Positions 3,075 to 63,908 of a stretch of DNA of 64,000 bases are shown here, piece by piece. The position numbers and the translations under genes are program-made. Numbering within the stretch: the first letter of the stretch is position 1; the number at the start of each line of letters is the position of its first letter. Below the pieces are notes generated by a model, which had not been told where the DNA came from, searched no databases, and worked only from the letters and a program-made list of their open reading frames with translations. The DNA is from Candidatus Moraniibacteriota bacterium (GTDB lineage: Bacteria; Patescibacteriota; Minisyncoccia; Moranbacterales; GCA-2747515): NCBI GenBank assembly GCA_046116545.1, contig CP175956.1:577734-641733 (forward strand), in the 5' to 3' direction.

Positions 3075-3230
3075 TTTTAAGTGATTTTGTAGCAATAATG
3101 TAAGCTTTTAGCGAAGAATGAGCAATGCAAAAAGTTCGAACGTCATTACCTACTCGGCTCATCGATAAAGAGCTCCATTTAATGGAGTTTTTGTATGTTC
3201 CGCTATGGTATGGTTGAACTTTGAATTTGA
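3075..3230 (+). repeat. Family-A intergenic repeat, copy A2
   Basis: ...gtaagcttttagcgaagaatgagcaatgcaaaaaGTTCGAACGtcattacctactcggctcatcgataaagagctccatttaatggag...tggttgaactttgaatttgatcac. The internal hairpin is degenerate (agctccattt/aatggagtt). Confidence 0.8.
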
Positions 3231-3611: not shown

Positions 3612-3617
3612 AAATAC

Positions 3618-3649
3618 TTGACAGTGGGGTTAACCCCATGGTTTATAAT
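3618..3649 (+). promoter_or_regulatory. MerR-type promoter/operator: TTGACA - 19/20-bp spacer containing palindrome TGGGGTTAACCCCA - TATAAT
   Basis: -35 TTGACA 3618-3623 and -10 TATAAT 3644-3649. The over-long spacer with a perfect dyad is the hallmark of MerR/CueR-activated promoters. It sits between the divergent merR-like gene and the HMA/copA genes. Confidence 0.8.
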
Positions 3650-3678
3650 GAAGTTAGTTTAGCATAATTATAAATAAT

Positions 3679-7345: not shown

Positions 7346-7423
7346 ATTTTAAATTATGTAAATTTAAGTTTTTTCTGTTAACAATATTGCATATGTGTTA
7401 ATGACATCATTTACTATTATTTT

Positions 7424-7600
7424 GTAAAACTAAAGGTTTTCAGTGAAGAACTAGTGGTATAAAAAGTTCGAATGTCAGTAACTATTCAGCTCATCGATAA
7501 AAAGCCCCATTTAAGGGGGCTTTTTGAGTACCCACTATGCAAGGATCAAACTATTTTGTATTTCGATTGACTTTTTATGTATTTTATGCTAATATTTAAT
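7424..7600 (+). repeat. Family-A intergenic repeat, copy A3 (full length with outward promoter)
   Basis: ~90% identical to A1 across the GTTCGAAT...terminator hairpin (aagcccca-ttta-agggggct)...GGATCAAACT...TTGACT...TAATAT module. Confidence 0.85.
7567..7595 (+). promoter_or_regulatory. Sigma70-like promoter TTGACT-17nt-TAATAT driving helicase gene 7663..9618
   Basis: Same promoter module as 676-704. Downstream RBS GAAGGAGA at 7651-7658. Confidence 0.65.
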
Positions 7601-7662
7601 GTTTGTTGACTTAATAATTGAAGATAATAAAATACGTTTCTCATAAAAGGGAAGGAGATAAT

Positions 7663-9618
7663 ATGAGTATTTCTAATTTTTGTAAATCTGTTGCAAAACT
7701 TCTTGAAACTCATTTAGAGTTTTCAAAAAGTAGTTTGCGTAGTGTACAGGTAGGCGGTTTTGAAAAGCTTATCAATTTTATCAATTCTGGTAAATTGAGT
7801 GGCTTAGTAAAACATCCTACAGGTGCAGGCAAAACTCGTTTTTTTTGCGAAGTTTTGTCAGCACTTAATATGCCTTCGCTCATTCTTGTACCAAGAACGA
7901 ACCTTGTAGCTGATACAAAGGAATCACTTGTTGGTAACGAGATGAGAGATGTAGAAGGTGTGGGTTATTTGGAAGAAGATATATTTCTTTTGAGTGATGA
8001 ATTTGGAAAAGCAGCCATTGCTTTAAAAAGCATTTTTGATAATATCATTAAAATGCAGGATTTTGGAGGAGTTGTCATCATGTCATATCAGTCGTTTTTG
8101 AGTATTTCAAAGCATGATATGTATACTCTTGATGATTTTATGAAACTCATCAAGGTAGTCATATCTGATGAAGCTCATAGAGGACTTGGAGATGAAACGC
8201 AAGAGGTTATCAAGCAATACAATGATGACATCATTGGAGATGGTGTTGATCGAGTGCATTTGCACATGACAGCAACTCCACAATTGGGTCATAAAAATGT
8301 ATGTGACATATATGATATTGAAGTGATAGATTGGGTACGTGTACAAGATTCTGTTGAAGATGGAATCCTTATCATGCCACAATTTCGTCATTTTGGTACA
8401 GCCACATACAAAACTACTGATGATATTAAATTTTCTGACAAGTTCTTTGAAAGTCTTGCAGAAAGTGAGAAGTTCGTCATGGATAATGGCCAATCTGTAA
8501 CTGAGGCAGCTATAGATGAATACATTATGTTAAAAGAAAAGCATGATGGATATTTACCTGGAGTTGTATTTTGTGGAACTATTGCTCATGCAGAGGCCAC
8601 TAAACAATATTTACTGTCACGAGGACTAAGGGCAATTCGCTCTACAAGTTCTAATAAACAGTATGATTGTGGCGTAAATCCTGACAGAGCAAGAGAGATG
8701 TTTCACAGCGAAGAAATCGATCTTGTAGTTACAGTAAGTAAGGTTGGAGAAGGTTGGGATGTGCCAACACTTCGCTGTGCCATTTGGCTTAGGCCAGTAG
8801 GTTCATCTGCAGTATATCTTCAAGGTACAGGTCGTGTGATGCGAACACTTCTTGATAATACCGTACATGCATTTAAGGATCGTTCAAATACTTATGTGAT
8901 TGAACCACTTTGGGAACTTGTACGTGTAAGTAGTGTAACAGAAGACAAAAAAGAAGATGAACATGAAAAAGAAATCGTAGAGAATGATTTAGCTGATACT
9001 GATTCTGATGCACAAACAACTGTATATCCGTCAAGAAATGGATATGAACATTTTGTTACAGCAGATGAATTTGATGTTGAAGCGCTACGTTCAATTGTTG
9101 GAGGAGATGCGCGTATTCATATGGATATTGATTTTCATAATGATGAGCATCTTCGAATCCTGATTGGTAGTGTAGACAAGCTTATTGTTAAAGGTAAGGG
9201 TGTGAATTTAGTAAAAGTGACTTTCATTAATACTGAACAAGATTGGAAAGTAACAGGTCGTGTTATTGGCAGAGTTTTGTGGAATAACTCAAGTCCAAAA
9301 ATTTATGATGCAGAAAAACTGGCTAAACAGTTATGGCCAGAGGAAGTTGAGAATTTGTTACCAAAGGAAAGATTTAATCCTAAGGATGATAATCACCTTC
9401 GAATACTAATAGGAAATGTAGATAATCTTATTGTTAATGGTAAGGGTGTGAGTTTAGTAAAAGCAACTTTCATTAATGCTGAACGAGGTTGGAAAGTAAC
9501 AGGTGGTGTTATTGGTAATGCTTTGTGGAAAAAGAAAAGTCCAAATATAGCTGATGCAGAAAAACTGGCTAAACAACTTTGGCTTGAAGAGGCTGAGAAG
9601 TTGTTGGACAAAAAATAA
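7663..9618 (+). CDS. SF2 DEAH-type helicase (ResIII-like core) with a C-terminal duplicated ~82-aa domain
   Basis: Walker A HPTGAGKTRF, DEAH VISDEAHR, motif III MTATPQ and motif VI QGTGRVMR. The start is moved to ATG 7663 (strong RBS) from ORF-track 7618. The C-terminus has 2 x (HLRILIG.VD.LIV.GKGV.LVK.TFIN.E..WKVTG.VIG..LW...SP.I.DAEKLAKQLW). Confidence 0.75.
   Translation: MSISNFCKSVAKLLETHLEFSKSSLRSVQVGGFEKLINFINSGKLSGLVKHPTGAGKTRFFCEVLSALNMPSLILVPRTNLVADTKESLVGNEMRDVEGVGYLEEDIFLLSDEFGKAAIALKSIFDNIIKMQDFGGVVIMSYQSFLSISKHDMYTLDDFMKLIKVVISDEAHRGLGDETQEVIKQYNDDIIGDGVDRVHLHMTATPQLGHKNVCDIYDIEVIDWVRVQDSVEDGILIMPQFRHFGTATYKTTDDIKFSDKFFESLAESEKFVMDNGQSVTEAAIDEYIMLKEKHDGYLPGVVFCGTIAHAEATKQYLLSRGLRAIRSTSSNKQYDCGVNPDRAREMFHSEEIDLVVTVSKVGEGWDVPTLRCAIWLRPVGSSAVYLQGTGRVMRTLLDNTVHAFKDRSNTYVIEPLWELVRVSSVTEDKKEDEHEKEIVENDLADTDSDAQTTVYPSRNGYEHFVTADEFDVEALRSIVGGDARIHMDIDFHNDEHLRILIGSVDKLIVKGKGVNLVKVTFINTEQDWKVTGRVIGRVLWNNSSPKIYDAEKLAKQLWPEEVENLLPKERFNPKDDNHLRILIGNVDNLIVNGKGVSLVKATFINAERGWKVTGGVIGNALWKKKSPNIADAEKLAKQLWLEEAEKLLDKK
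9139..9618 (+). repeat. In-frame direct duplication (2 x ~246 bp) forming the C-terminus of helicase 2
   Basis: The protein repeats begin DDEHLRILIGSVDKLIV... and DDNHLRILIGNVDNLIV.... Confidence 0.8.
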
Positions 9619-9671: not shown

Positions 9672-9830
9672 ATATTTTGAGTGATCTTGGAGTAATAATG
9701 TAGGCTTTTAGGGAAGAATGGGCAATACAAAAAGTTCGAACGTCATTACCTAGTCGGCTCATCGATAAACAGCCCCATTAAATGGGGCTTTTTGAGTATC
9801 CACTATGATAGGATCGAACTATTGTGATAG
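9672..9830 (+). repeat. Family-A intergenic repeat, copy A4
   Basis: ...gtaggcttttagggaagaatgggcaatacaaaaaGTTCGAACGtcattacctagtcggctcatcgataaacagccccattaaatggggctttttgagtatccactatgataGGATCGAACTattgtg. Confidence 0.85.
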
Positions 9831-12004: not shown

Positions 12005-12088
12005 TTGTAAAACAAAGACTTTTAGTGAAGAATTAACATCACAAAAAGTTCGAACGGTAGTACCTACTATAGATAGGATCGAACTAAG
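12005..12088 (+). repeat. Family-A repeat, short copy A5 (both ends present, internal hairpin deleted)
   Basis: tgtaaaacaaagacttttagtgaagaatt...aaaaGTTCGAACGgtagtacctactatagataGGATCGAACTaag. The two inverted termini lie only ~25 bp apart. Confidence 0.75.
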
Positions 12089-16368: not shown

Positions 16369-17238
16369 ATGAAAATTATCACATGGAATGTTAATGGAAT
16401 CAGAGCTGTTGAGAGAAAGGGTGCTCTACAGGATTTAATCGAAAAACAAGAGCCAGACATTTTATTTTTACAAGAAATTAAAGGCAAAAAGGAACAATTT
16501 AGTAAATATTTAACTGATAGTACTAAGTATAGACAGTTTTACCATAGCGCTGAGAAGCCTGGATATGCAGGTACTGGAATTTGGATTAAATATGAATTAC
16601 TTCGAGATGCGCGACGTATTAAATTTAATATGCATGTACCACAGCCTACAGATTCTTATGTTGAAAATGACGAATTGTTTAAAGGCGTGGAGGAGAATAT
16701 TGGTATTTATATGACGGATTTACCAAATAGTGATGAGGGTCGTGTTTCACATCTTTCTTTTTTATATAAGGGAAAAATTTATGATCTAGCATCAATTTAT
16801 TTTCCTAATGGAGGTAAAAGTGAGCAGGCTTGGGAAGATAAGTTAATATTTTTTGATAAGGTGTTGGATTATATGAATGGACTAAGGAAGCTTGGTCATG
16901 AAGTTATAATTGGTGGGGATATGAATGTTGCTCACGAAGAAATTGATCTTGCAAGATCAAAAGAGAATGATGGTAAAATAGGATTTCATCCTCGAGAAAG
17001 AGCATGGATGGATAAAGTAATGGAAAGTAATTGGGTAGATGTTTGGAGATATAAAAATCCAAATATTCAAAGTGTATACTCATGGTGGGATATGAAGACG
17101 AGAGCACGTGATAGAAATGTTGGTTGGAGAATAGATTATTTTTTTATGGATCGAGAGTCAGTTGATAATGTGCAAGATGTAAAATATTTAGGGGATCATA
17201 TAGGCTCCGATCATTGTCCTCTTATGATGGAAATATAA
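16369..17238 (+). CDS. xth: Exodeoxyribonuclease III (AP endonuclease, EEP family)
   Basis: Canonical N-terminus MKIITWNVNGIRA and a C-terminal GSDHCP motif. 289 aa. Confidence 0.9.
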   Translation: MKIITWNVNGIRAVERKGALQDLIEKQEPDILFLQEIKGKKEQFSKYLTDSTKYRQFYHSAEKPGYAGTGIWIKYELLRDARRIKFNMHVPQPTDSYVENDELFKGVEENIGIYMTDLPNSDEGRVSHLSFLYKGKIYDLASIYFPNGGKSEQAWEDKLIFFDKVLDYMNGLRKLGHEVIIGGDMNVAHEEIDLARSKENDGKIGFHPRERAWMDKVMESNWVDVWRYKNPNIQSVYSWWDMKTRARDRNVGWRIDYFFMDRESVDNVQDVKYLGDHIGSDHCPLMMEI

Positions 17239-17255
17239 AAGATTAAAATAAATAA

Positions 17256-18005
17256 ATGAAACATAGAATTATACCATCATTACATAGTTTAGTTATAATA
17301 ACATTGTGTCTTAGTATCGCAGGTGCTTTCATATATCTTAGTACTAGAGAGTTGAATAAAGATGTAGAATTAGCAAATCAAACTATAGATATAGAAAATA
17401 TGTATGGGAATTGGAATAAGCCTAAATATCAGACAAAACAAATTGATGTGTCTTTCAAATATGATACTAGGCAGGTGGATGATGTGCATATAGTTAATTA
17501 TGATTTAACAAACAAGGTTGGTGAAGATATGATAACTCAAAAAGAAATTGAAATATTGTTAAATTGCTATAAAAATGAAATTTGTGAAGATATTGATATA
17601 TCAGCAAGAACTGAATATTTGATAAATAATTATAAAAACTTTCTAATCAAGGATGATTTTGTGATAGTGTATGGTTTGTATCCAGATATGAGAGAAGAAT
17701 CTTTTGGTGAAATTGAAAATAATATATTTATAATAAATGAGCAGATGTTTGCAAATATTGTAAATTCAATTTATTCAAAAACAAATAAAAAATATGATGG
17801 TGTGAGGAGGGATTTCTTGATTAATAATGTGGATATTGAGTATAGTGATTATACGAATCAACATAGAATTGAAAAAAAAGATGATATGATACAACTTGCA
17901 GTAGAAGAAATTTTGGAGGAAGAAACTAGTTATGTAAGGGAAGATATTGATTTATTGAAGATAATAGCTGAGTCAGTATCTTTTTTAGATAAAGAAAATA
18001 ATTAA
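17256..18005 (+). CDS. Membrane-anchored hypothetical protein
   Basis: N-terminal TM helix. No family motif. Confidence 0.45.
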   Translation: MKHRIIPSLHSLVIITLCLSIAGAFIYLSTRELNKDVELANQTIDIENMYGNWNKPKYQTKQIDVSFKYDTRQVDDVHIVNYDLTNKVGEDMITQKEIEILLNCYKNEICEDIDISARTEYLINNYKNFLIKDDFVIVYGLYPDMREESFGEIENNIFIINEQMFANIVNSIYSKTNKKYDGVRRDFLINNVDIEYSDYTNQHRIEKKDDMIQLAVEEILEEETSYVREDIDLLKIIAESVSFLDKENN

Positions 18006-38494: not shown

Positions 38495-41400
38495 ATGAAA
38501 AAAAATATTGTCAAGCTTTTGGGTGTATTTGTTTTTTTTGCGTACCTTGTATCAATGTCCACTACTACAACTTTTGCAGTAGATGAAACAACTATTGAAG
38601 AAATTATTCCAAATGAATTTCAAGGAGGTGGAATAGCGCAAGGATGGCAAGGGGATGATGATAATTGGGATTATGCACTTCCATTCACATTCAATTTTTA
38701 TGGAGTAGATTATACTAATATAAAAATAGGTTCAAATGGAGCTATTTGTCTGGATAATGCACAAAACTGTACATGGTATGCAGAAATAAATAGTAGTTGG
38801 ATGGGGCCAGTTATAACAGCTCTAGGTAAAGACCTTATAACGAATGATATATTTATAACAGAAAGTTCGGATAATGTTGTTATACGGTGGGCTGTAACAG
38901 AATATGGTACATCAAATCAAATAAACTTTGAAGTAGTATTGTATAGTGATGGAAATATAAAGTTTAATTATGGAAATTCTGATATAGCACTTTCAGGTGG
39001 CGCAGTAGTTGGAATTCTTAAAGGTGATGGCATAATATATACAGAATCAGTCTATCATCAAAATACAGAGTTTGATCAAGTGGATACATCAGCATGGGGT
39101 GAGTTTGGAATAGGTGTTGAGAGTTTTTTTCCAGCAGATAATGAAGCTGGTGTGTTTTTGGATACAGACTTAAAAATAACTTTTGATACTGAAATATATC
39201 AAGGAATAGGCAATATTGAAATAAAGAAAAAATCAGATAATTCTATTGTAGAAATGATAGATGTTACAGCAGGTCAAGTAACGGGCTTTGGAACAGTAGA
39301 TATTACAATTTCAACAAATATTGAATTACAAACATATACGCAATATTATGTAACAGTAGATGAAAATACATTTAAAGATATAGATGATGAAGCATATTTA
39401 GAAATAAGTGATAATACAACATGGAACTTTTCAACAGGGGACGGTTATATTATAAAAACAATTTCAGAGGGACGATGTTATGAAATTGGCTCTGCTGAAA
39501 CACAAAAGCCAACAAATACAGAATTATCATACTCAAATGATAATCAAGTGACTTGGACTTATGTGCCTGAAGATCAGGGTACTGGAGGGGACTGTAATAT
39601 TACGGATGTACGACTTAATGTTTTTGCAGATACACAAACAATTGGTGAAAACTTAGAAACCGAGTTTGTGGGAACACTTATAGATACACAAGTTACTAAT
39701 AATGATGATGGAGAAGTTGGTTTAGTATATAATAATGTGGGAACATATGTGTTTGGTAGCACAAACAGAGATGATGGGCAGAGTATTGTAGTAGATACAC
39801 AAAATAATGTATATATTGCAGGAGCCTTTAGTGACACGGTAGACTTCAATCAATCGGGTATCGGGTTACCAGACAACCATACTAGCACTGGTTATCAAGA
39901 TATTTTCATTACAAAATATAATGCAGATAGTTCATATGGTTATACTTATGCAATGGGTGGAACAAATAATGACGTTGGATATGACATCGCAACAGATTCT
40001 CAAGATAATGTTTATATAATTGGAAGCTTTCATTTGACAGTTGATTTTAATCAAACGGGTAGTGGATTGCCAGATATACACACAAGTAATAGTAGACGTG
40101 ATATTTTTATCACAAAAATAAATGCAGATGGTAGCTATGGCTACACGTATACATTTGGAGGACTTCCAGATACTTTTGGAAATAATAATTATGGGTATGC
40201 AATTGCAATAGATTCTCAGGACAATGTTTACGGTATGGGAAATTTTTCTAGAACAATAGACTTCAATCAAACAGGTAGTGGTTCAGTAGATAATCATGTT
40301 AGCAATGGTTATTATGACATATTTATCACAAAAATAAATACAGATGGATCTTATGGTCATACGTATACAATGGGAGGAGTAGGTTATGATTATGGACATG
40401 AGATTACGACGGATACACAAAATAATGTATATATTACAGGTGCTTTTAGTGGCACGGTAGATTTTAATCAAACTGGCAGTGGCTCACCAGATAGTCATAC
40501 GAGCAATGGTAGTAGAGACATATTTATAACAAAATATAACGCAGATGGCTCATATGGCTATACTTATACAATGGGGGATGTAACCTATAATGCTGGACGA
40601 GGTCTTGTGGTGGATACACAAAATAATGTATATATTACAGGAGAGTTTAGTGGCACAGTGGACTTTAATCAAACAGGTAGTGGGTTACCAGATAGTCATA
40701 CTAGTAATGGTATTTTAGACATATTTATTACAAAATATAACCCCGATGGCTCATATGGTTACACTTATACAATGGGTGGATTGGGTTATGATTATGGAAA
40801 TGGAGTTACTCTGGATATGCAGGACAACGTATATATTACAGGATCCTTTAATAACACAGTAGATTTTAATCAAACGAACGGTGGTAGTTCAGATGTGTAT
40901 GTGAGCAATGGCGCTTATGATATTTTTATTACAAAGATAAATGTAGATGGTTCTTATGGTTGGACTAATACATTTGGTGGAACAGATTCAGATTTTGGCC
41001 TTGGTGTGGCACTGGATGATTCCAATGATGTTCTTGTGACAGGGATTTTTAAAGGCACTGTAGAGTTTAATCAAACAGGTGCAGGATTGGCAGAATCATA
41101 TGTAAGTAAGGGTGATTATGATATTTTTATTACAAAATATAACGCAGATGGTTCATATGGAACATTTTTTTCAGATAGTTACAAGACAGTAGGAGATTAT
41201 CAAGTACAGATAGCACATAATGATTCTATGGCGTGGCAACAGTTAGAGATAATGAGCAATGATCCAATAGACACAAACTTGGAATATACAATATTAGATA
41301 ATACTTGTGCAAACACGCTCGTAGGGCCAATATCTGATACTATGATAGATTTATCGTCAATTGGAAATAGTGATGCGGGGTTATGTTTTCAGACAAATTT

Positions 41401-44400
41401 TACAACAATAGATACACAAGTAACTCCGCAAATAAATTCATGGACGGCAACATATGCAATAGAGAGAAATATTACAGACTTTAATTTTAATACAATTTCA
41501 CAAAGTACAATACAAAATTGTGATTGTTATGTGATAGGGTCAGCCGAAGCTGAACAGCCAGAAAATTCAATATTATATTTTTCAAAAGATGATGGATTTT
41601 CATGGGATTATATACCAGTAGACAACGGAGGAGGAATGGATTGTAATGTCACAAATGTAAAAGTGAAATACAATGATGATACTCGTGAAGTAGGCGAAGA
41701 CTTGGAAGGTGAGTTTACTGGAGTAATTACAGACACAGAAATCGTCAATGTTGATGGTGGAGAGATTGAAATAAAAAAAGGTGGAATGGGAACTTATTCT
41801 GTTGGTACTGGTGGTGAAGTGGGTTATGGTGTTGTAGTAGATGGTAACAATAATATTTATGTTACAGGAGAATTTGGAGATACTACGGATTTTAATCAAA
41901 CGGGGGTAGGTGAGTCAGATATACATACTAATAATGGAGCTTATGATATTTTCATTACAAAATATAATGCAGATGGTTCATATGACTATACATATACAAT
42001 AGGTAGTACTGGCGATGATACTGGATTAGATATTATTACAGATGATCAAAATAATGTATATATTACAGGACGGTTTGAGAATACTGTTGATTTCAATCAA
42101 ACGGGTTCTGGTAGTTCAGATGAACATACAGCCATTGGTAGCCTAGAAAATATTTTCATAACAAAATACAATGCCGATGGTTCATATGCATACACATACA
42201 CAATAGGTAGCACTGGATATGACTATGGAGAGGGTGTTGTAGTTGACAGTGTAGGTAATGTATATATGATAGGGTTTTTTGAAAATAGCGTTGAATTTAA
42301 TACAACTGGCTCAGGTGTATCAGATATACACACAAGTCATGGCTCTCGTGATATTTTCATAACAAAATACAATGCAGATGGTTCATATGACTATACTTAC
42401 ACAATGGGTGGTTCAAGTTATGATTATGGGTATGGCATAGCAGTGGATAGTTCGGATAATATATATATGACAGGCTCATTTAGTGGTACTGTTGACTTCA
42501 ACCAAACTGGTTCAGGTGCATCAGATACACATACCAATAATGGCTCTCGTGATATTTTCATAACAAAATACAATGCAGATGGTTCATATGACTATACTTA
42601 CACAATGGGTGGTTCAAGTTATGATGATGGTAAAGATATTATCATAGATAATTTTGGGAATGCATATATTACAGGATATTTTCGAAGTTCAACAGCAGAA
42701 TTTAATCAAACTGGTTCAGGTGCATCAGATATGCATACAACCAATGGATCGTATGATATTTTTATCACAAAAATAAATGCAGATAATGGCTATGGTTACA
42801 CATATACAATGGGGAGTTCTCAATCTGAACATGGGGAAGGTGTCACGGTAGATAATTTAGGTAATGTATATGTTACAGGATATTTTGGGGGAGATATGGA
42901 TTTCAATCAAACTGGATCAGGTGATCCAGATGTTCATGCAATTAGTGGAGGAGGTTATGATGTTTTTATAACAAAATACAATGCAGATGGTTCATATGGC
43001 TACACGCACACAATAGGTGATAACCAAACTGTTTTTGGATTTAGCATTACAACAGACAATTTAAATAACCTTTATACAACTGGATTATTTAATGCCACTC
43101 TTGATTTCAATCAAACTGGAACAGGTGAATCAGATATTCACACAGGCTATATGAATGCGACTATGTTTCTTACAAAAATTAATGCAGATGGAACCTACGG
43201 AACGTTGTATGAATATTACAAATCACCAGGAATCTACCAAACCAAAATCCCCTCAACAAACATAAAAGAATGGAAAGAATTAACAATAGATCAAAATACC
43301 CCAGATGACACAACAATCAAATACGAAATATTAGATCAATTATGTACAAATACGTTGATAAATGAAACAGAGAATACAACAATAGACCTATCAAGTATAA
43401 ATACAATCAATATAGAACTTTGTCTCGAAATAACCTTTGAAACAACAGATGTACAAGAAACTCCAATCTTAAACAGTTGGCAAGCAACCTACACAACAGA
43501 TCCAGAAACAGATGAAGAAGAAATAGATTTTCAGACAATGAGAAATCCAGAATGTGATTTAGTAATATTGCCTATTAATCCAGTAGATCCAATAATTCCA
43601 CCAGAAGAACCAGAAGAAGAAAAAGAATGCAAAACCGACAATATAAAAGAAATAACAAAAGATTCAGTAACTCTAAGAGTAGAAGTAGATGAAGAATACG
43701 CAGATGAGAAAATAAAATTCAAAGTAGAAGTAGAGAATCTATATACAAATGAAAAAGAAACAATAAAACTAACGGATAAACCATCTGATAGTGGAAGAGT
43801 AACTCTAGAGATAGATAACCTAGAAGAAGATACCCAATATAGGTTCAAAGTATCATATCAAGAAGATGATAGCTACGAATACTGTCCACATTCTAAAACA
43901 GCAACAACAGAAAAAACAACTCTAGGACCTACAAAAGAAATAGTAAATCCAGAATGTGGAGAATCAAGTAAAACATATACAGAAGATGAATCAGAATTCA
44001 CAGGAGACTTCTGTCAAACAGGAGAAGTATTAAATATACCAGAATTTCCAAATCAAGGAGAATCATCTTCATGGACATGTACAAATGATGATGAAGAAAT
44101 AACATGTAGCGCTAGTAGAGAAGAAAAAGAAATAGTAACTCCTCCAGTAGTACAAGGAGGAAGTGATCCTGAACCACCAGCACAAGAAGTAACAGATCCT
44201 CCTGTACAAGAACCAACAAAGGAACAACAAAAAGAAAAACAATATCAAGCAGCTGCAGTAGTAGGATTAACAACAGGAACACTAATAGCTCTAGCTTCAA
44301 CAACAATCCCTCTATTCACAACAATCCCAATGGCAGCAACAGATATATTCATAATGCCTTTCTTAGGAATATTAGCTAGAAGAAAAAATGAACAAAACTG

Positions 44401-45142
44401 GGGAACAGTGTTTGAACAAACAACAAAACAACCATTGCCTGGAGTAAAACTAGTTCTAACTGATATAGAGGGCTTTGAAATAGAAACAACATACTCAGAT
44501 CAACATGGAAGATTTGGATTCTTAACAACAAATGGAACATATCTGATACATCCAGAAAAACCAAAATATGAAGAAGACCTAACTCATAACCATGATTCAC
44601 TATACGGAGATGTATATACAGGAGAAGCATTAACAATAGAAGAAAACAAAGTTCTAGCAACAAATATTGCAATGAATGCCCTGAATATAAACTGGAATGA
44701 ATATGCAGATAAAAAAGTAAAAAGCTATACAGGAACTTTCTCAGCAATAAAGAAATGGAGCTTCATAATTCTTTTTTACGTAGGATTTATAGCTACAGCA
44801 GCAATAACTTACCTGTACCCATCAACTCTAAATTACATATTCCTATCTCTATATATGGCACTGTTCATTTATGATAACTTCATAAAACAAAAGAAATATG
44901 GAACAGTAACAAAACATGATAAAAACCCAGTACCTTTTGCAGTAGTATCACTCCATAACAAAGAAACAAATCAAAAAACAGGATTCGCTGTAACAGATGC
45001 AATAGGAAGATATTATCTTCTAGCAGAAAATGGAGATTACAATATGAAAGTAAAAGGACAACCAATATCAGGACAACCTTTTGAAAAACAAGGTAATATC
45101 AATGTTAGGAAAGGTCTTGTTAGGGAGGATATTAAAGTTTAA
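38495..45142 (+). CDS. Giant (2215 aa) cell-surface protein: two blocks of ~10 SBBP beta-propeller repeats inside a duplicated super-module, FN3-like domain, Pro/Glu-rich linker, 3 TM helices and 2 CarboxypepD_reg-like domains
   Basis: Signal peptide, then the repeat unit VDTQNNVYITG.FSGTVDFNQTGSG..D.HTSNG..DIFITKYNADGSYGYTYTMGG. C-terminal modules VKLVLTDIEGFEIETTYSDQHGRFGF and FAVVSLHNKETNQKTGFAVTDAIGRYY. Confidence 0.8.
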   Translation: MKKNIVKLLGVFVFFAYLVSMSTTTTFAVDETTIEEIIPNEFQGGGIAQGWQGDDDNWDYALPFTFNFYGVDYTNIKIGSNGAICLDNAQNCTWYAEINSSWMGPVITALGKDLITNDIFITESSDNVVIRWAVTEYGTSNQINFEVVLYSDGNIKFNYGNSDIALSGGAVVGILKGDGIIYTESVYHQNTEFDQVDTSAWGEFGIGVESFFPADNEAGVFLDTDLKITFDTEIYQGIGNIEIKKKSDNSIVEMIDVTAGQVTGFGTVDITISTNIELQTYTQYYVTVDENTFKDIDDEAYLEISDNTTWNFSTGDGYIIKTISEGRCYEIGSAETQKPTNTELSYSNDNQVTWTYVPEDQGTGGDCNITDVRLNVFADTQTIGENLETEFVGTLIDTQVTNNDDGEVGLVYNNVGTYVFGSTNRDDGQSIVVDTQNNVYIAGAFSDTVDFNQSGIGLPDNHTSTGYQDIFITKYNADSSYGYTYAMGGTNNDVGYDIATDSQDNVYIIGSFHLTVDFNQTGSGLPDIHTSNSRRDIFITKINADGSYGYTYTFGGLPDTFGNNNYGYAIAIDSQDNVYGMGNFSRTIDFNQTGSGSVDNHVSNGYYDIFITKINTDGSYGHTYTMGGVGYDYGHEITTDTQNNVYITGAFSGTVDFNQTGSGSPDSHTSNGSRDIFITKYNADGSYGYTYTMGDVTYNAGRGLVVDTQNNVYITGEFSGTVDFNQTGSGLPDSHTSNGILDIFITKYNPDGSYGYTYTMGGLGYDYGNGVTLDMQDNVYITGSFNNTVDFNQTNGGSSDVYVSNGAYDIFITKINVDGSYGWTNTFGGTDSDFGLGVALDDSNDVLVTGIFKGTVEFNQTGAGLAESYVSKGDYDIFITKYNADGSYGTFFSDSYKTVGDYQVQIAHNDSMAWQQLEIMSNDPIDTNLEYTILDNTCANTLVGPISDTMIDLSSIGNSDAGLCFQTNFTTIDTQVTPQINSWTATYAIERNITDFNFNTISQSTIQNCDCYVIGSAEAEQPENSILYFSKDDGFSWDYIPVDNGGGMDCNVTNVKVKYNDDTREVGEDLEGEFTGVITDTEIVNVDGGEIEIKKGGMGTYSVGTGGEVGYGVVVDGNNNIYVTGEFGDTTDFNQTGVGESDIHTNNGAYDIFITKYNADGSYDYTYTIGSTGDDTGLDIITDDQNNVYITGRFENTVDFNQTGSGSSDEHTAIGSLENIFITKYNADGSYAYTYTIGSTGYDYGEGVVVDSVGNVYMIGFFENSVEFNTTGSGVSDIHTSHGSRDIFITKYNADGSYDYTYTMGGSSYDYGYGIAVDSSDNIYMTGSFSGTVDFNQTGSGASDTHTNNGSRDIFITKYNADGSYDYTYTMGGSSYDDGKDIIIDNFGNAYITGYFRSSTAEFNQTGSGASDMHTTNGSYDIFITKINADNGYGYTYTMGSSQSEHGEGVTVDNLGNVYVTGYFGGDMDFNQTGSGDPDVHAISGGGYDVFITKYNADGSYGYTHTIGDNQTVFGFSITTDNLNNLYTTGLFNATLDFNQTGTGESDIHTGYMNATMFLTKINADGTYGTLYEYYKSPGIYQTKIPSTNIKEWKELTIDQNTPDDTTIKYEILDQLCTNTLINETENTTIDLSSINTINIELCLEITFETTDVQETPILNSWQATYTTDPETDEEEIDFQTMRNPECDLVILPINPVDPIIPPEEPEEEKECKTDNIKEITKDSVTLRVEVDEEYADEKIKFKVEVENLYTNEKETIKLTDKPSDSGRVTLEIDNLEEDTQYRFKVSYQEDDSYEYCPHSKTATTEKTTLGPTKEIVNPECGESSKTYTEDESEFTGDFCQTGEVLNIPEFPNQGESSSWTCTNDDEEITCSASREEKEIVTPPVVQGGSDPEPPAQEVTDPPVQEPTKEQQKEKQYQAAAVVGLTTGTLIALASTTIPLFTTIPMAATDIFIMPFLGILARRKNEQNWGTVFEQTTKQPLPGVKLVLTDIEGFEIETTYSDQHGRFGFLTTNGTYLIHPEKPKYEEDLTHNHDSLYGDVYTGEALTIEENKVLATNIAMNALNINWNEYADKKVKSYTGTFSAIKKWSFIILFYVGFIATAAITYLYPSTLNYIFLSLYMALFIYDNFIKQKKYGTVTKHDKNPVPFAVVSLHNKETNQKTGFAVTDAIGRYYLLAENGDYNMKVKGQPISGQPFEKQGNINVRKGLVREDIKV
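39470..43500 (+). repeat. Internal duplication of a ~2 kb super-module ([Cys module]-[~10 SBBP repeats of ~180 bp]-[~95-aa module]) within the giant surface-protein gene
   Basis: CYEIGSAETQKP.. / CYVIGSAEAEQP.. and YKTVGDYQVQI.. / YKSPGIYQTKI.. flank the two SBBP blocks (39780-41170 and 41810-43200). Confidence 0.8.
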
Positions 45143-55929: not shown

Positions 55930-56556
55930 ATGTCAAAAGCATCTCGCAGGAAGTCTAATAAGAATAAGAAACATAAACGTAAAAAACAAGAAAGAGAGCA
56001 ATCTTGTTTGAAGCATACTAAAGAAATGCGGCAGTTGAGGTTTGTGGCGTATATGTGGGAGGATGATGCTTGTGATTTTTCTGGTGTTTTGTGTAATATG
56101 AAGGTTGATAACATTATAAAAGCAAAATATCAAAACTTTTGTTTTGATGATGTTATGTATACCAGAATTTCCTTACATGTATACAATGACAATGTTTGTA
56201 AAGCTTATCAGCTTATGGAAAGTTCTGCATTGACTGCTGTCGGTTCTGAACAATTTATTTCGCCAAAGTGTAGAGGTTTGTTTTCACATCGAATTACACA
56301 GGAAAATCTTTGTGTAGTTGGCCAAATAACTCATGAAACTGTTGATCAATTTAATGGTGATGTAAAAGAATCTCAAGCCTTGTATGATTCTGAAATATTG
56401 TTTTATCAATTGCCCCATAGTGTAAATATTTTTGTGGAAATTTATACTAATGATATAAATCGTGAATCTGCCATAGCAGTGTTAGATGATGGTTGGATGA
56501 GTAATAAATGGGGTAGTCAATTCCAGCAAGTTAAACGAACGGGAGCATTGCAATGA
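55930..56556 (+). CDS. Hypothetical protein with highly basic N-terminus (start moved to the RBS-supported Met)
   Basis: GGAGG RBS 6 nt upstream of ATG 55930. SKASRRKSNKNKKHKRKKQEREQ. Confidence 0.45.
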   Translation: MSKASRRKSNKNKKHKRKKQEREQSCLKHTKEMRQLRFVAYMWEDDACDFSGVLCNMKVDNIIKAKYQNFCFDDVMYTRISLHVYNDNVCKAYQLMESSALTAVGSEQFISPKCRGLFSHRITQENLCVVGQITHETVDQFNGDVKESQALYDSEILFYQLPHSVNIFVEIYTNDINRESAIAVLDDGWMSNKWGSQFQQVKRTGALQ

Positions 56557-57137
56557 GTAAAAAAACTTTTTTGAGCAGAATGTATTTTAGTTCAACTTTG
56601 TCAAAAATGTTGTGCGACAAAAAGAGTCTTCAGGCACTTTTTTGTACCTATGGAAGTGTCATGGACTATGAAAAGGGTTGTGTAGAAACAGATGAGGATA
56701 ATCTGAATATAACTATTGTTGCAGACACAGAAGATGGTGTAAGCGCGCGACATCGGGCAGTTAACTCTATGGTGGATTATGCAAATGAAGACTTGACATT
56801 AGCAGCAGAGAAACAACAAGAAATGGAGGATTGTTTTCTGGGTGAAAAAGCTGGTGATTTCTGCAAAGCAGATGATGTTATGTTCGTCGTGTACATGGGA
56901 CTTAATGGCTTTGAAGCAACAGTCCAATTCTTGAATTTTTTGAGAATTAATTATCCGCAGGCGTGTATCATAACATTAACTTGTGATTGTAATATTAATT
57001 ATAAGGAAGCTGCTACAAGGATGCTTCAAAAAACTAATGTAGTTAATGCAAGTTTTGTAACGGGTGACTGTGGTGGTGCTGTTGTGATGAGAGAGATGAT
57101 TAATGACTTGATTGAGGTATGGTCAAATAAATCATGA
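56553..57137 (+). CDS. Hypothetical protein (194 aa), translationally coupled to the upstream gene (ATGA overlap)
   Basis: 4-bp overlap. No family recognised. Confidence 0.45.
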   Translation: MSKKTFLSRMYFSSTLSKMLCDKKSLQALFCTYGSVMDYEKGCVETDEDNLNITIVADTEDGVSARHRAVNSMVDYANEDLTLAAEKQQEMEDCFLGEKAGDFCKADDVMFVVYMGLNGFEATVQFLNFLRINYPQACIITLTCDCNINYKEAATRMLQKTNVVNASFVTGDCGGAVVMREMINDLIEVWSNKS

Positions 57138-57146
57138 ATTAAGGAC

Positions 57147-57190
57147 TAGAGCAATGAATCTATATAGATTTATTGCTCTTTATTTTTATT
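57147..57190 (+). terminator. Rho-independent terminator (tagagcaatgaatcta ... tagatttattgctct + T-run)
   Basis: 15-bp stem with one mismatch followed by TTATTTTTATT. Confidence 0.75.
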
Positions 57191-57217
57191 GACAGTAAAT
57201 ATAATTAGTTGTACATT
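57189..57217 (+). promoter_or_regulatory. Sigma70-like promoter TTGACA-17nt-TACATT upstream of the RT leader
   Basis: -35 at 57189-57194 and -10 at 57212-57217. Confidence 0.5.
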
Positions 57218-57224
57218 ATTGAGC

Positions 57225-57460
57225 AGGAGCCGATTTGTTGGGTTTGTTGATTTTTTACGCGACGCCCATAGAGGCTGTCTGTTATCGGATAGCTAAATAA
57301 GTGTAAGGATGATTCCAAGTATGGCAAAGACTATGCTGACTTAGTTTCTTGCAGAGTAATAAATACGGTGTGTTATTGACAATGGTGAATATCCAAAGCA
57401 CATAACTACCGTGCTAGGGCTCTATGGGAGAAAGAGAATTTATCTTTCTCCCATTTTTTT
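57225..57460 (+). ncRNA. Candidate retron non-coding RNA (msr-msd) / structured leader upstream of the RT
   Basis: ~235-nt untranslated region between promoter and RT RBS. Inverted 9-mers GCCCATAGAG (57264-57273) / CTCTATGGG (57420-57428). Perfect 10-bp hairpin gggagaaaga-gaatttat-ctttctccc (57426-57452). Confidence 0.3.
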
Positions 57461-57497
57461 AAAATAAAGGTACTTTAACATAAAAGGAGATTACAAA

Positions 57498-58529
57498 ATG
57501 ATAAGAGATGATGCGGTTGATATTTTATCAAATTTAATTGATGGGCAATATACATCAGTTCAAATTCATGATGTATTAGATAGTTGGGTGTGTTATCGTC
57601 AATTTTATCAAAGAAAGAAAAGTGGTGCTAAACGATTGTTGAGTGCACCAGATGATTCTTTGAAAAAATTGCAATATTACATTTTACGTTACATTTTATA
57701 TAGATTTCCTGTGCATAAAAATTTGTATGGATTTGTGCCAGGTGTCACCATGAAAGATGGCGTGTATACACATTTACTCAATCAGCACACAAGAGATGGT
57801 GGTATGCCGCGGTGGATATTGCATATTGATTTGAAAAACTGTTTTCCATCTGTGAAATCAGAAATTTTACAAAACATGTTTGAAGATATGTCTGCAGGCT
57901 TACTGTATGAATATGGCGTGCACAATACAGATGTATTTCTAGAGTTTTGTCGTATTATGGTAGAGCTTACTACATACAAAGGTAGGTTGACTCAAGGAGC
58001 ACCAACATCACCTTATTTGACGAATCTTGTAATTTCATGGTCGGGTATTGCAGATAATTTAGATGCTTATTGCAGAGAAAATAAATTACATTTTTCTATA
58101 TACGCAGATGATATCGTAGTATCTTCAGTGAATCATGAACAAATATCAAAACGTCAAATAATTAAATGTGTAGAAGCAAATAAAATATTTAGGGTTAATC
58201 CCAAAAAAACGCATTTAAACAATGTCAGACATAGATCACATTGTATTACAGGAATAATAGTTCACACACCTATAGTTGGTGTTGATAAGTGTGCCAGACT
58301 GACTCTTTCACAAAAAAAGCAGAAGTTTTATCGTGGTAGAATTTGGTATGCTACACGTTTTTTGCAACAAGGATATGAACCAAGTATACAGAATGATGGT
58401 ATTTCTGTAGAGCAGGTTAGGGGTTATATTGCGTGGATACGTCATGTCTGTGGTGGACATATCCCATCAAGCCTACAAAAACCAATTAGTTACTTTGAAA
58501 AAATCACAGCAACTTTAAATGACATCTGA
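57498..58529 (+). CDS. Retron-type reverse transcriptase (343 aa)
   Basis: RT motifs RLLSAPDDSLKKLQ (1), ILHIDLKNCFPSV (2), LTQGAPTSPYLTNLV (4), FSIYADDIVVSS (5, YADD), plus the retron-typical ITGIIVH (VTG) region. No maturase/X or endonuclease domain. Confidence 0.75.
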   Translation: MIRDDAVDILSNLIDGQYTSVQIHDVLDSWVCYRQFYQRKKSGAKRLLSAPDDSLKKLQYYILRYILYRFPVHKNLYGFVPGVTMKDGVYTHLLNQHTRDGGMPRWILHIDLKNCFPSVKSEILQNMFEDMSAGLLYEYGVHNTDVFLEFCRIMVELTTYKGRLTQGAPTSPYLTNLVISWSGIADNLDAYCRENKLHFSIYADDIVVSSVNHEQISKRQIIKCVEANKIFRVNPKKTHLNNVRHRSHCITGIIVHTPIVGVDKCARLTLSQKKQKFYRGRIWYATRFLQQGYEPSIQNDGISVEQVRGYIAWIRHVCGGHIPSSLQKPISYFEKITATLNDI

Positions 58530-58554
58530 ATCTCAGATGTCATTTTTGATTTTT
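58519..58554 (+). terminator. Rho-independent terminator spanning the RT stop codon (atgacatctga-atc-tcagatgtcat + TTTTGATTTTT)
   Basis: Perfect 11-bp stem. Its left arm supplies the spurious ORF-track ATG 58519 for recQ. Confidence 0.75.
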
Positions 58555-58584
58555 AAACAGATAGATTGTATTATAGTAATTACT

Positions 58585-60723
58585 ATGCAAAAACTTTTGA
58601 AAAAACATTTTGGACATGAAGATTTTCGTAGCGTACAAAAAGATGTGATTGATCATTTTGTAGCAGGAAATGATGTGGCAGTTATTATGCCTACTGGTGG
58701 TGGTAAGTCACTTTGTTTTCAGCTACCTGCTGTTATGCGTGACGGAGTTACTATTGTTATATCTCCACTTATTTCACTTATGAAAGATCAGGTGGATGCA
58801 CTAAATGCAAATGGTATAGCAGCGACGATGCTTAATTCATCTGTATCACATGAAGAGCTAGACCAGAGAATGCAACTAGCACAAATGGGAGGATATAAAC
58901 TCATATATCTCGCACCAGAGAGACTTTCAAATGATTATATACAAAACTGGCTAGGCAAGATAAACATCACAGCGCTTGCAGTTGATGAGGCTCATTGTAT
59001 TTCACAATGGGGACATGATTTTCGACCAGACTATAGAAATCTAAAGCTATTTCGCCAGAGATTTCCACAAGTCCCTATTATAGCTTTAACAGCGAGTGCA
59101 ACTGAGCGTGTGAGAGAAGATATTGTCAAAGAGTTAGCACTTACAAATCATAAGGTTTTTGTATCTGGATTTTATCGTGAAAACTTAAATATTACAGTAA
59201 TGCCAAAGTCTGGTGCAAATGACAAAATTTTGCATTTTGTAGAAAAATATAAAAATGAATCAGCAATTATATATTGTTTTTCTCGCAAAGAAACAGAAGA
59301 ACTTGCAGAAGTATTAAGAGAGGAAGGCATAAATGCAGGAGCTTATCATGCAGGGCTTACACAAGAAAAAAGAACTGAAGTGCAAGATGCATTTGTGCGA
59401 GATGATATAAATGTAGTGGTGGCTACAATTGCTTTTGGTATGGGGATAGATAAGCCTGATGTACGATTGGTGATGCATAAGACGTTTCCAAAAACTATCG
59501 AAGGATACTATCAAGAGATTGGGAGAGCTGGTCGTGATGGTTTACCAAGTGAATGCGTGATGCTCTTTTCTGCTGGAGATAAGATGAAATTAGATTATTT
59601 TCTCAGACAGATGGATGAGGCTAGGCGACAAAGTGAAGAAAAGAAGATTAGAGAGGTGATAGATTATGCAGAATCTAGAATTTGTCGTTGGCAATGGCTT
59701 ACTAGTTATTTTGGACAAGGTGGACTCCCAGCTTGTGGTACTTGTGATGTATGTACATCAAATGACGAAACAGAAGATGTGACAGAACTAGTACAAAAAA
59801 TTCTATCCGCAGTAGTAAGAACAGGGAATACTTTTGGCAAAGGTCATGTTGTAAAAGTGCTAAGGGGTTCACGAGATAAAAACGTACTTAGTAGGGGGCA
59901 TGAAGAGTTAACTGTGTGGGGAATTGCAAAAGAATATTCCACAGCAGAACTCATGGAGGTAATGACACATCTAGTAGCTCGAGGATTGATGGTACGGAAT
60001 ACTGGAGAATATGAAACATACAGAGTATCACAAGTAGGTGCAGATTTTTTGAATAATAGAGAATCAATAGAATTACCAAAGATAAAGAAAGAATATAAAT
60101 ATATTAGTTCAAATAGTCAAAAGCAAGAACTTGATTATAACAAGGAAATATTTGAAGCGCTTAGGGAATTAAGAAAAGAAATTGCAGATGATGTAGGTGT
60201 ACCAGCATTTGTGATTTTTGGGGATGTTTCACTGCAGGAGATGGCATATTATTTACCAACATCAAGAATTGCATTTTCAAATATATCAGGAGTAGGAGCT
60301 CAAAAATTGGAAAAATATTCAGAAACATTTACAGAATTTATAAGTGAACTAAAACAAGAAAAAGGACTAGAAAGCAAAGAACATAAAAAAAATAGAAAAC
60401 CAAAAAAATCAAAAGGAAATACATCCTCAGCAAAGCAACTACGATTGAATAGAACAAAAGAAATGCTGGAAGATAAATTATCAATGGAAGAAATGTCTGA
60501 AGAATTACAATTAGCACAAAGAACTATTATAAATTATATAGAAGAAATAGCAGAAAAAAATGATGTAGATGTAGAATATTTACTACCAAACAAAAAAGTA
60601 CAAAAAGAAATTAAAGAAGCATTCAAAAAACATGGCAATGATGCGCTTAGACCAATATTTGACCATTGTAATGAAAAATATAGTTATGATGAGATAAAGT
60701 TGGTTCAAATTGCAGATTTGTAA
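58585..60723 (+). CDS. recQ: ATP-dependent DNA helicase RecQ (helicase core, Zn-binding, RQC, HRDC, C-terminal HTH-like extension)
   Basis: MQKLLKKHFGHEDFRSVQ N-terminus, Walker A PTGGGKSLCFQ, DEAH VDEAHCISQWGHDFRPDY, Zn-finger CRWQW...CGTCDVC and HRDC FGDVSLQEMAYYLP. Start moved to ATG 58585. Confidence 0.85.
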   Translation: MQKLLKKHFGHEDFRSVQKDVIDHFVAGNDVAVIMPTGGGKSLCFQLPAVMRDGVTIVISPLISLMKDQVDALNANGIAATMLNSSVSHEELDQRMQLAQMGGYKLIYLAPERLSNDYIQNWLGKINITALAVDEAHCISQWGHDFRPDYRNLKLFRQRFPQVPIIALTASATERVREDIVKELALTNHKVFVSGFYRENLNITVMPKSGANDKILHFVEKYKNESAIIYCFSRKETEELAEVLREEGINAGAYHAGLTQEKRTEVQDAFVRDDINVVVATIAFGMGIDKPDVRLVMHKTFPKTIEGYYQEIGRAGRDGLPSECVMLFSAGDKMKLDYFLRQMDEARRQSEEKKIREVIDYAESRICRWQWLTSYFGQGGLPACGTCDVCTSNDETEDVTELVQKILSAVVRTGNTFGKGHVVKVLRGSRDKNVLSRGHEELTVWGIAKEYSTAELMEVMTHLVARGLMVRNTGEYETYRVSQVGADFLNNRESIELPKIKKEYKYISSNSQKQELDYNKEIFEALRELRKEIADDVGVPAFVIFGDVSLQEMAYYLPTSRIAFSNISGVGAQKLEKYSETFTEFISELKQEKGLESKEHKKNRKPKKSKGNTSSAKQLRLNRTKEMLEDKLSMEEMSEELQLAQRTIINYIEEIAEKNDVDVEYLLPNKKVQKEIKEAFKKHGNDALRPIFDHCNEKYSYDEIKLVQIADL

Positions 60724-60725
60724 TA

Positions 60726-60760
60726 GGTTGGCCCTATGGGAGGAAGTTTGAACTTTTTTA
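60726..60760 (+). repeat. Family-B short repeat, copy B1 (GGTTGGCCCTATGGGAGGAAGTTTGAAC)
   Basis: One of 4 copies of TTGGCCCTATGGGAKGARGTTCGAAC in 3.1 kb, all in the same orientation. Confidence 0.8.
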
Positions 60761-60828
60761 TGTAATGAATAGGATATTATGGCAAATTTTGATATAATTG
60801 GGGCATATAAATAATAACTTAATTATAT

Positions 60829-61206: not shown

Positions 61207-61214
61207 TAAATAAT

Positions 61215-61250
61215 CAGTTAGTCCTATGGGATGAGGTTCGAACGGTTTTA
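61215..61250 (+). repeat. Family-B short repeat, copy B2 (TTAGTCCTATGGGATGAGGTTCGAACGG)
   Basis: See B1. Confidence 0.8.
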
Positions 61251-61288
61251 TTGTAATAAATATACAATTTATTTTTTTAGTATGAAAA

Positions 61289-62587: not shown

Positions 62588-62716
62588 TTAGGTTATAACA
62601 GGAACTGGTTTGTGTCAATTCAAGGTTCAGGAATCATAATTTCTGAAAGCATATTATATCTGGTAGATTTATTTGAGACTACCGGGTTTTTAAATTTTAA
62701 AAACACAAAAAATCGA

Positions 62717-62750
62717 ATTGGCCCTATGGGATGAGGTTCGAACACTTTTA
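62717..62750 (+). repeat. Family-B short repeat, copy B3 (TTGGCCCTATGGGATGAGGTTCGAACAC)
   Basis: See B1. Confidence 0.8.
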
Positions 62751-62934
62751 AATTCAGTTTTGAAGTAGAGAATAAGTAGTAAAGGTTGTTAACAAAGGTT
62801 TCATCAAAAGATTTGGATTAGAATTTAAGTCATATGAGTTGACAAGTTGATGAATTTGTGACATAGTTAGATGTTGATTAAAATCAACTATTATGTGTAA
62901 TTTATACATGATAAAATTAGGAATTCTTTAATAA

Positions 62935-63771: not shown

Positions 63772-63788
63772 AATTTGTCAAAATATAG

Positions 63789-63823
63789 AGTTGGCCCTAT
63801 GGGAGGAAGTTCGAACACTTCTA
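63789..63823 (+). repeat. Family-B short repeat, copy B4 (GTTGGCCCTATGGGAGGAAGTTCGAACAC)
   Basis: See B1. Confidence 0.8.
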
Positions 63824-63908
63824 TTGCAATAGTAATGGATATTTGATAGTATTTAGTATCGTTTATTTAACATATTGATAAGTCATCATTCAAAATAAGG
63901 AGTAGAGA

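Follow-up and report, generated by a model that had tools for sequence, protein, structure and literature searches.

Does the reverse transcriptase (RT) encoded at 57498-58529 of a 64,000-nucleotide (nt) stretch of a Candidatus Moraniibacteriota bacterium chromosome (contig CP175956.1, assembly GCA_046116545.1, positions 577,734 to 641,733 of the forward strand) belong to a retron, and if so, which of the surrounding elements belong to it? The whole of this stretch is referred to as the window. The original prediction, made from the letters of the window alone, proposed a retron or defence system consisting of the RT, a structured upstream non-coding RNA (ncRNA) and a pair of upstream genes as effectors. 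Loci of homologous RTs were retrieved and the DNA 5' of each RT was read; 17 RT loci entered the comparison of neighbouring genes. Here we present the resulting reading, which we hold to be probable: the RT and its ncRNA form a self-contained two-component retron of about 1.36 kb, inserted into this chromosome between the terminator of a two-gene operon and the promoter of recQ, with no effector encoded in cis.

The reverse transcriptase and its clade

57498-58529, + strand: retron-type RT, 343 amino acids (aa); YADD; region X ...DGVYTH with invariant H92; region Y ITG with invariant G252

The open reading frame (ORF) at 57498-58529 encodes 343 aa with every RT motif quoted in the original prediction. 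Pfam reports RVT_1 alone, no extra domain fused to the RT was found with Pfam or PADLOC, and neither a group II maturase or endonuclease domain (Pfam) nor a group II intron RNA (Rfam, window) was detected. Classification with the PADLOC models bore out the claim of a retron-type enzyme. All 25 of the 25 top families are retron RTs, led by RT_II-A (E = 2.5e-43, 146.4 bits) and RT_III-A (3e-42) and followed by types XIII, XII, XI, X, VI and others. Retron RTs also rank on top for all 16 clade proteins, none of which matches any type better than 2.5e-43. The top NCBIfam model is retron_St85_RT (131.6 bits, under its cut-off of 235 bits), and the models for group II RT/maturase (TIGR04416, 50.2 bits, cut-off 300 bits), Drt2 (17.7 bits, cut-off 390 bits) and Drt3a (16.1 bits) are far weaker. 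With a profile of the eight closest proteins, a search of the PDB returned Ec86 first (1e-20), followed by Kva2, Ec78, Ec67 and Ec83, and group II RTs only at about 2e-7.

Mestre et al. 2020 (PMC7736814) single out two residues as the most conserved hallmarks of retron RTs, the NAxxH histidine of region X and the VTG glycine of region Y. Both (H92 and G252) are invariant throughout the 16 clade members. Region X reads DGVYTH in the subclade of the window RT, and distant clade members retain NAxxH. Over eight RT proteins of 45-60% identity 90 columns are invariant. The clade is small, with about 16 proteins at E < 1e-44 among 5.8 billion clustered proteins; its members with names are assigned to Moraniibacteriota, Moranbacteria or "Patescibacteria group", and most originate from metagenome-assembled genomes of Patescibacteria. 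The window RT is 100% identical to an annotated protein of a Candidatus Moraniibacteriota metagenome-assembled genome. A scan of genome contigs with the single RT gave no match. Generic retron patterns dominated what the 16-member alignment picked up in metagenomes, where the only clade loci obtained were L018 (a duplicate of L016), L019 and L021, and the scan of viral contigs found only other retron types, at no more than 31% identity. Because the top matches are retron models and the hallmark residues are kept, the 343-aa protein is classified from its sequence as a retron-type RT, not a group II, diversity-generating retroelement (DGR), Abi or DRT enzyme, although it lies outside all curated retron families.

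A conserved structured RNA upstream of the reverse transcriptase

57189-57217, + strand: sigma-70-type promoter of the retron unit, TTGACA-17-TACATT (10/12 positions); top promoter-like site of 55.7-58.7 kb
57226-57231, + strand: 5' strand of the closing stem P1, GGAGCC, a2-equivalent, pairing with 57418-57423 (minimum free energy (MFE) folds, covariation)
57232, + strand: junction G directly 3' of P1, candidate branching (priming) guanosine (alignment of nine)
57239-57268, + strand: SL1, msr-like stem-loop of variable sequence; 6/7 basal pairs with compensatory changes
57272-57295, + strand: SL2, near-invariant 10-bp stem-loop AGGCUGUCUG-UUAU-CGGAUAGCUA (regular-expression and covariance-model matches)
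57296-57417, + strand: variable central domain of 122 nt with two hairpins (MFE folds), candidate msd template
57418-57423, + strand: 3' strand of P1, GGCUCU, a1-equivalent (MFE folds, covariation)
57424-57460, + strand: intrinsic terminator between ncRNA and RT, 12-bp stem GGGAGAAAG.../...CUUUCUCCC (57424-57454) plus U7 (57454-57460)
57484-57489, + strand: Shine-Dalgarno sequence of the RT gene, AAGGAG (read from sequence)
58517-58545, + strand: intrinsic terminator closing the retron unit; the 5' arm lies in the stop region of the RT

The promoter and the untranslated leader of about 235 nt described in the original prediction are both present, and the leader folds well beyond shuffled sequences (z = -5.2). 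The predicted transcription start at about 57224-57226 corresponds to the first base of P1, and the leaders of the homologues, as read from their sequences, carry a TTGACA/-10 pair at the same spacing to P1 as in the window. The perfect hairpin noted earlier within the leader lies at 57424-57454 and constitutes, together with its T run, an intrinsic terminator, which was also found in the homologue leaders examined; the strong terminator announced behind the RT is located at 58517-58545. Three terminator-like hairpins occur on the + strand (57148-57179, 57424-57454 and 58517-58545), and on both strands of the 55.7-58.7 kb region five such sites were observed against 0.9 expected from shuffles.

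Thirteen related loci besides the window share a common layout, among them all close homologues with enough upstream DNA (L001, L005, L008, L013, L015, L016 and L101) and the distant loci L019, L021, L102, L103 and L105, whose RTs are 32-37% identical to that of the window. It consists of promoter, P1 5' strand, usually a junction G, SL1, SL2, central domain, P1 3' strand and terminator, the latter being a hairpin with a purine-rich arm and a U-run, followed after about 30-45 nt by a Shine-Dalgarno sequence and the RT start. Independent MFE folds of nine homologous leaders gave the same architecture, all closed by P1. The junction position is a G in eight of nine aligned homologues, opposite an unpaired G in six and paired with a C in two, and a U in L021; by analogy, G57232 may serve as the branch point. 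SL2 follows the family consensus CGGUCGUCUG-N4-CGGACGGCUG, and regular-expression matches to it occur only upstream of RTs of this clade; by the same analogy SL2 is likely the element recognized by the RT. The central domain measures about 90-400 nt in the homologues, with neither length nor sequence conserved. No Rfam family matched the ncRNA at gathering thresholds, and permissive thresholds yielded hairpin noise only.

The a1/a2 stem had originally been sought in two inverted 9-mers, CCCATAGAG (57265-57273) and CTCTATGGG (57420-57428). These sequences exist, at an estimated chance expectation of about 0.25 such pairs in 361 nt, and overlap with the 3' arm of SL1 and with the P1 3' strand and the terminator. 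Between the counterparts of these regions in five homologues, complementarity extends to four bases at most; the 9-mers are therefore not the closing stem, and a role as conserved a1/a2 stem or as conserved antiterminator is ruled out, the real closing stem being P1. Folding the leader in search of a1/a2 repeats and a branching G, as had been suggested, thus yielded a conserved closing stem and a junction G in eight of nine homologues, but at other positions than the 9-mers. As a separate observation, the 9-bp pairing specific to the window would, if formed, be a competitor of the ncRNA terminator's 5' arm and could be a lineage-specific antiterminator, or may be due to chance.

Covariation was assessed on a hand-fitted alignment of equal-length mini-sequences containing the P1, SL1-base and SL2 segments only. 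The omission of stem interiors, of one bulged A in L001 and of part of one loop makes its figures favourable to structure. In this alignment 94.2% of the cells are paired; sliding the 3' partners by 1-3 columns lowers the share to 26-46%. Both sides are changed in 16 of 25 pairs, and the observed covariation score was reached by none of 500 shuffles. Covarying columns comprise 8/8 of P1 and 6/7 of SL1, and SL2 shows two pairs with double-sided and three with single-sided changes. In view of the bias of the alignment, a separate test was added with a covariance model of SL1 plus SL2, trained on ten real sequences. It detects exactly one site in the 64-kb window (57232-57298) and sites 5' of the RT at loci outside the training set (L105 with 5e-5, L102 with 9e-5 and L103 with 1e-3), with a marginal match at L104. 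Nothing better than E = 0.2 was obtained in about 150 loci of other retron types or in the retron-less relatives L098-L100 and L181. Because of the covariation in homologues and the clade-specific matches of the covariance model, the leader is regarded as a genuine RT-associated structured RNA of the msr-msd type, as had been proposed.

Neighbouring genes, insertion site and cassette repeat

55930-56556, + strand: 208-aa conserved hypothetical protein, context; syntenic with PBP2 and recQ in relatives
56553-57137, + strand: 194-aa member of an uncharacterised protein family (about 200 aa), context; YxGL, LTCDCD and CGG motifs; homologue before recQ in L181
57148-57179, + strand: terminator behind the 208-aa/194-aa ORF pair
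58546-60723, + strand: recQ, context only; promoter-like site 58546-58574, true start of the coding sequence 58585

The two upstream ORFs overlap via ATGA and are followed by the terminator at 57148-57179, as expected for the translationally coupled pair described in the original prediction; their proposed role as effectors does not hold. All-against-all BLASTP of first 10 and then 17 RT loci found no homologue of the 208-aa or 194-aa protein near any other RT of the clade. The 208-aa protein has six relatives of 50-60% identity. L098 has the order MreC, 168-aa ORF, PBP2 and 208-aa homologue; in L099 the 208-aa homologue is directly followed by recQ, and in L100 the 208-aa homologue stands between a counterpart of the 554-aa protein of the window and a small zinc-ribbon ORF. 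The window keeps the same gene order, from MreB/MreC/PBP2 through recQ. The closest relative of the 194-aa protein (P0063, 49% identical) sits in L181, where a 208-aa homologue (54%), a 194-aa homologue (47.5%), 88 nt with a terminator and recQ (80% identical) follow one another. The terminator of L181 is homologous to window 57148-57179, and no RT is detectable in this locus. The hairpin of the operon terminator (…AATCTATATAGATT…) is also kept in L098 and L100.

Since the pair is absent from the other RT loci and present beside recQ in the retron-less L181, the 208-aa and 194-aa genes are best regarded as resident host genes and not as retron effectors. Since L181 has pair, terminator and recQ without a retron, the ancestral order would be operon, terminator, recQ promoter and recQ, with the retron at 57189-58545 an insertion of about 1.36 kb in the window. 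The insertion contains promoter, ncRNA, RT and terminator only. The DNA upstream of recQ in L099 and L181 aligns with window 58546-58584; T-rich segments occur at both insertion junctions, and the alignment with the empty site requires no target-site duplication. The G+C content of the retron unit (0.342) equals that of the host (0.33).

The original prediction had recognized no known effector class in the two proteins, and in agreement with this PADLOC gave no effector match among the neighbour genes. The 194-aa protein appeared as an ORFan in a k-mer-based search, a view overturned by an exhaustive HMMER search, which delivered 159 relatives of about 200 aa at E <= 1e-3. The residues Y33, G42, Y114-x-G116, C144-D-C146 and C173-G-G175 are invariant in this family, whose profile has no match in Pfam, PADLOC or the PDB. 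The structure search suggested at the outset remained without result for both proteins: the single-sequence AlphaFold model of the 194-aa protein (pLDDT 37) was unusable, and for the model of the 208-aa protein (pLDDT 57) Foldseek found nothing below E = 0.001 in the PDB, generic ferredoxin-like folds only. The NCBI annotation starts the 194-aa gene at M37 (158 aa); homologues align from residue 2-12, which favours the longer, ATGA-coupled ORF. What lies between the 208-aa gene and recQ varies among Moraniibacteriota relatives: nothing in L099, the 194-aa homologue in L181 (region 1-1340) and an 87-aa zinc-ribbon ORF in L098 and L100; in the window it is the 194-aa ORF and the retron.

No neighbour family is common to the clade in the BLASTP comparison of the 17 RT loci. 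In L015 the ncRNA-RT unit lies directly between a superoxide-dismutase (sodA-like) gene and bipA, with no space for a partner. The unit of L005 occupies the same locus upstream of bipA (L005 6001-10023, L015 1068-2728); the BipA proteins of the two loci are 84% identical, the RTs only 55%, and the central domains of the two ncRNAs are unrelated. This suggests fast diversification or cassette-like replacement at the locus. Because no neighbour is conserved across the clade and none meets the standard of a clade-wide association, the unit is interpreted as an orphan two-component retron.

Downstream of recQ an intergenic repeat of about 40-80 nt stands behind each small gene, in at least six copies spaced by 490-1500 nt.

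60722-60772, window: cassette repeat copy
61212-61262, window: cassette repeat copy
62712-62762, window: cassette repeat copy
63785-63835, window: cassette repeat copy
17017-17055, L009, past the window end: cassette repeat copy
17935-17973, L009, past the window end: cassette repeat copy

The core of the repeat is TTGGCCCTATGGGA[T/G]GA[G/A]GTTCGAAC, and its layout resembles a cassette array; no Rfam family matches it. ARAGORN found no tRNA or tmRNA in the window, which rules out that the GGTTCGAA-containing repeats are tRNA fragments. A likeness between the 3' part of the leader and this repeat had been taken as a possible link of the RT to the cassette junctions. The likeness itself was found again, as the 3' end of the ncRNA is identical to two repeat copies at 15 of 17 bases. 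The link is unsupported: with an nhmmer profile of the six copies (about 50 nt) true copies score 43-52 bits and the retron site 4.1 bits (E = 1.9 window-wide), a level also reached by several unrelated partial matches in the window. The retron site covers profile positions 10-25 only and is devoid of the most conserved half, the GGTTCGAAC core. Rescaled to the leader (about 470 nt, both strands) the score corresponds to p of about 0.007, an estimate for a comparison chosen post hoc. At the other RT loci no cassette repeat and no extra copies of their own ncRNA 3' end were found. A second short repeat, ATGACGTTCGAACTTTTT, occurs at 570-587, 3129-3146, 9729-9746 (- strand) and 12046-12058; it shares the GTTCGAAC palindrome with the cassette repeat, and this second repeat may be a genome-wide intergenic motif. 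A 2215-aa ORF extends over 38495-45142 on the + strand of the window.

Proposed mechanism, rival readings and known systems

The retron would operate as follows. Its own promoter gives rise to the ncRNA of about 235 nt, whose two ends pair as P1, the equivalent of a2/a1. The intrinsic terminator would stop most transcripts before the RT gene, so that the RT would be made from read-through and at a low ratio to the RNA; the terminator leaves no space for a separate RT promoter. On the model of characterised retrons, the RT would bind the SL1/SL2 region, prime from the 2'-OH of the junction G 57232 and copy part of the central domain into multicopy single-stranded DNA (msDNA). The downstream function, most likely phage sensing, would be exerted via a trans-encoded partner or by the RT-msDNA complex itself. 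The presence/absence polymorphism in close relatives and the fast divergence of the RT at a common locus lend indirect support to an accessory or defence role.

Several observations weigh against this interpretation. No retron family's curated cut-off is reached by the RT (131.6 against 235 bits), whose region X has DG in place of the NA of NAxxH. P1, at 5-8 bp, does not attain the length of many a1/a2 stems, two homologues have the junction G in a base pair and one has a U instead, and the covariation figures come from the hand-fitted alignment described above. We know of no described retron with a terminator between ncRNA and RT, and every step after transcription is drawn by analogy. With respect to the missing effector, L001 and L013 have a pair of paralogous, uncharacterised proteins encoded 3' of the RT, in L005 and L008 the RT is followed by small ORFs that are unrelated, and 4 of 17 loci carry, no more than 3 kb from the RT, a gene for a TrmB-like winged-helix (helix-turn-helix) protein of about 250 aa.

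251-1021, L008: TrmB-like protein
7384-8133 (- strand), L019: TrmB-like protein
7611-8342, L021: TrmB-like protein
3491-4231, L104: TrmB-like protein

The TrmB-like protein is absent from the window. Regulators of this kind may be common in these genomes, so that their proximity to the RT could be due to chance; the TrmB-like protein or the small ORFs could be lineage-specific partners.

Among the rival readings, a tripartite retron or defence system with the 208-aa and 194-aa proteins as effectors is largely refuted and the least probable of all. The operon does adjoin the retron on the same strand with only a terminator between, effectors often flank the ncRNA-RT unit (PMC7736814) and both proteins are without known function; but the pair has no homologue at the 16 other RT loci and is found beside recQ in the retron-less L181, L098 and L099 show synteny of the 208-aa gene with PBP2 and recQ, the operon terminator is kept in retron-less relatives, and there are no PADLOC matches. 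It is also very unlikely that the retron is functionally tied to recQ or the cassettes, with the ncRNA 3' end sharing a recognition sequence with the junction repeats. The identity at 15 of 17 bases, the leader-only p of about 0.007, the presence of recQ within 3.4 kb of the RT also in L104 and the resemblance of the family-wide 3' pattern GGCCY-TAY-GGGAG to the repeat are outweighed by a window-wide E of 1.9, level with unrelated partial matches, by the missing GGTTCGAAC, by the absence of the repeat and of extra own-3'-end copies at all other RT loci, and by an adjacency to recQ that predates the insertion.

An inactive, decaying remnant, as might be suspected from the lack of an effector, the loss of the NA of NAxxH in the subclade and a G+C content equal to that of the host, is highly improbable. 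YADD and all RT blocks are present in an intact ORF, eight proteins share 90 invariant columns, and the conservation of promoter, SL2, P1 and terminator is accompanied by compensatory changes, which argues for purifying selection on both RNA and protein. Less remote, but still unlikely, is another RT-ncRNA system, for instance a DRT2-like rolling-circle cDNA or a DRT9-like homopolymer, that copies the domain enclosed by P1. P1 joins both ends of a variable template-like domain, no effector is encoded, and the RT falls under all retron family cut-offs, whereas the Drt2 and Drt3a models reach 16-18 bits against 131-146 for retron models and the retron hallmark residues are retained. The central domains of three homologues (about 120, 173 and 175 nt, mostly not multiples of 3) contain stops in most frames, and a neo-like endless ORF as in DRT2 is therefore ruled out. 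Within the preferred reading of a self-contained retron, one may speculate, though with low probability, that in minimal-genome bacteria of the candidate phyla radiation (CPR) this effector-free clade of retrons acts through an RT-msDNA complex that is itself toxic or sensing, or supplies single-stranded DNA to recombination and repair, the terminator setting the stoichiometry of RNA and RT.

DGRs constitute some 80% of the RTs in CPR/Patescibacteria (PMC8632793, review). The only CPR-associated group of unknown RTs mentioned in the papers found is UG38 of the UG/Abi family, which the window RT does not resemble, and in searches of the literature on Patescibacteria, CPR or Parcubacteria no description of a retron came up. 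Retrons are rarely reported from these organisms. The clade bears on how orphan retrons work, a point on which Mestre et al. (PMC7736814) raised the question of a trans-acting effector or a different function. The unit of about 1.36 kb is small enough for easy heterologous testing, and a false lead is removed, the two "effector" genes being part of a conserved operon of the host beside recQ.

In comparison with known systems, the unit shares with DRT2 (UG2) defence the two components, an RT and an upstream structured ncRNA, and the lack of a separate effector gene, but belongs to another RT family (Drt2 17.7 bits against the 390-bit cut-off) and has no stop-free repeat ORF in the template-like domain. 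With the divergent, metagenome-derived retron RT lineages it has in common the retained regions X and Y and a predicted upstream ncRNA (de novo in those lineages); in those lineages stand-alone accessory proteins recur no more than two genes away from the RT, whereas this clade has none, and the PADLOC type XI models are not the best match of the window RT (114.7 against 146.4 bits). Like the orphan retrons of the Retron-Eco5/Ec107 branch (PMC7736814) it consists of RT and ncRNA with no identifiable associated protein, but it differs from Retron-Eco5/Ec107 in RT clade (PADLOC RT_Ec107-like 99.6 bits), ncRNA architecture and hosts.

Among the retrons of Mestre et al. 2020 (PMC7736814) the type II-A (Ec86/Eco1-like) and III-A RTs are nearest by hidden Markov models. 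Shared with these retrons are the RT size of about 340 aa, the histidine of region X, the xTG of region Y, a structured ncRNA directly upstream on the same strand, and complementary end segments, which enclose 5' stem-loops and a variable template-like domain; at the inner end of the 5' segment stands, in most homologues, a G. The score of 146 bits is far under family level; there is neither an NDT-like/PRTase effector nor a conserved neighbour, the ncRNA has no Rfam family, a conserved terminator separates it from the RT, and the hosts are mostly Patescibacteria. What appears to be new, as judged by these comparisons, is a divergent clade of retrons that has an RNA family of its own, a terminator placed between ncRNA and RT, and no effector in cis.

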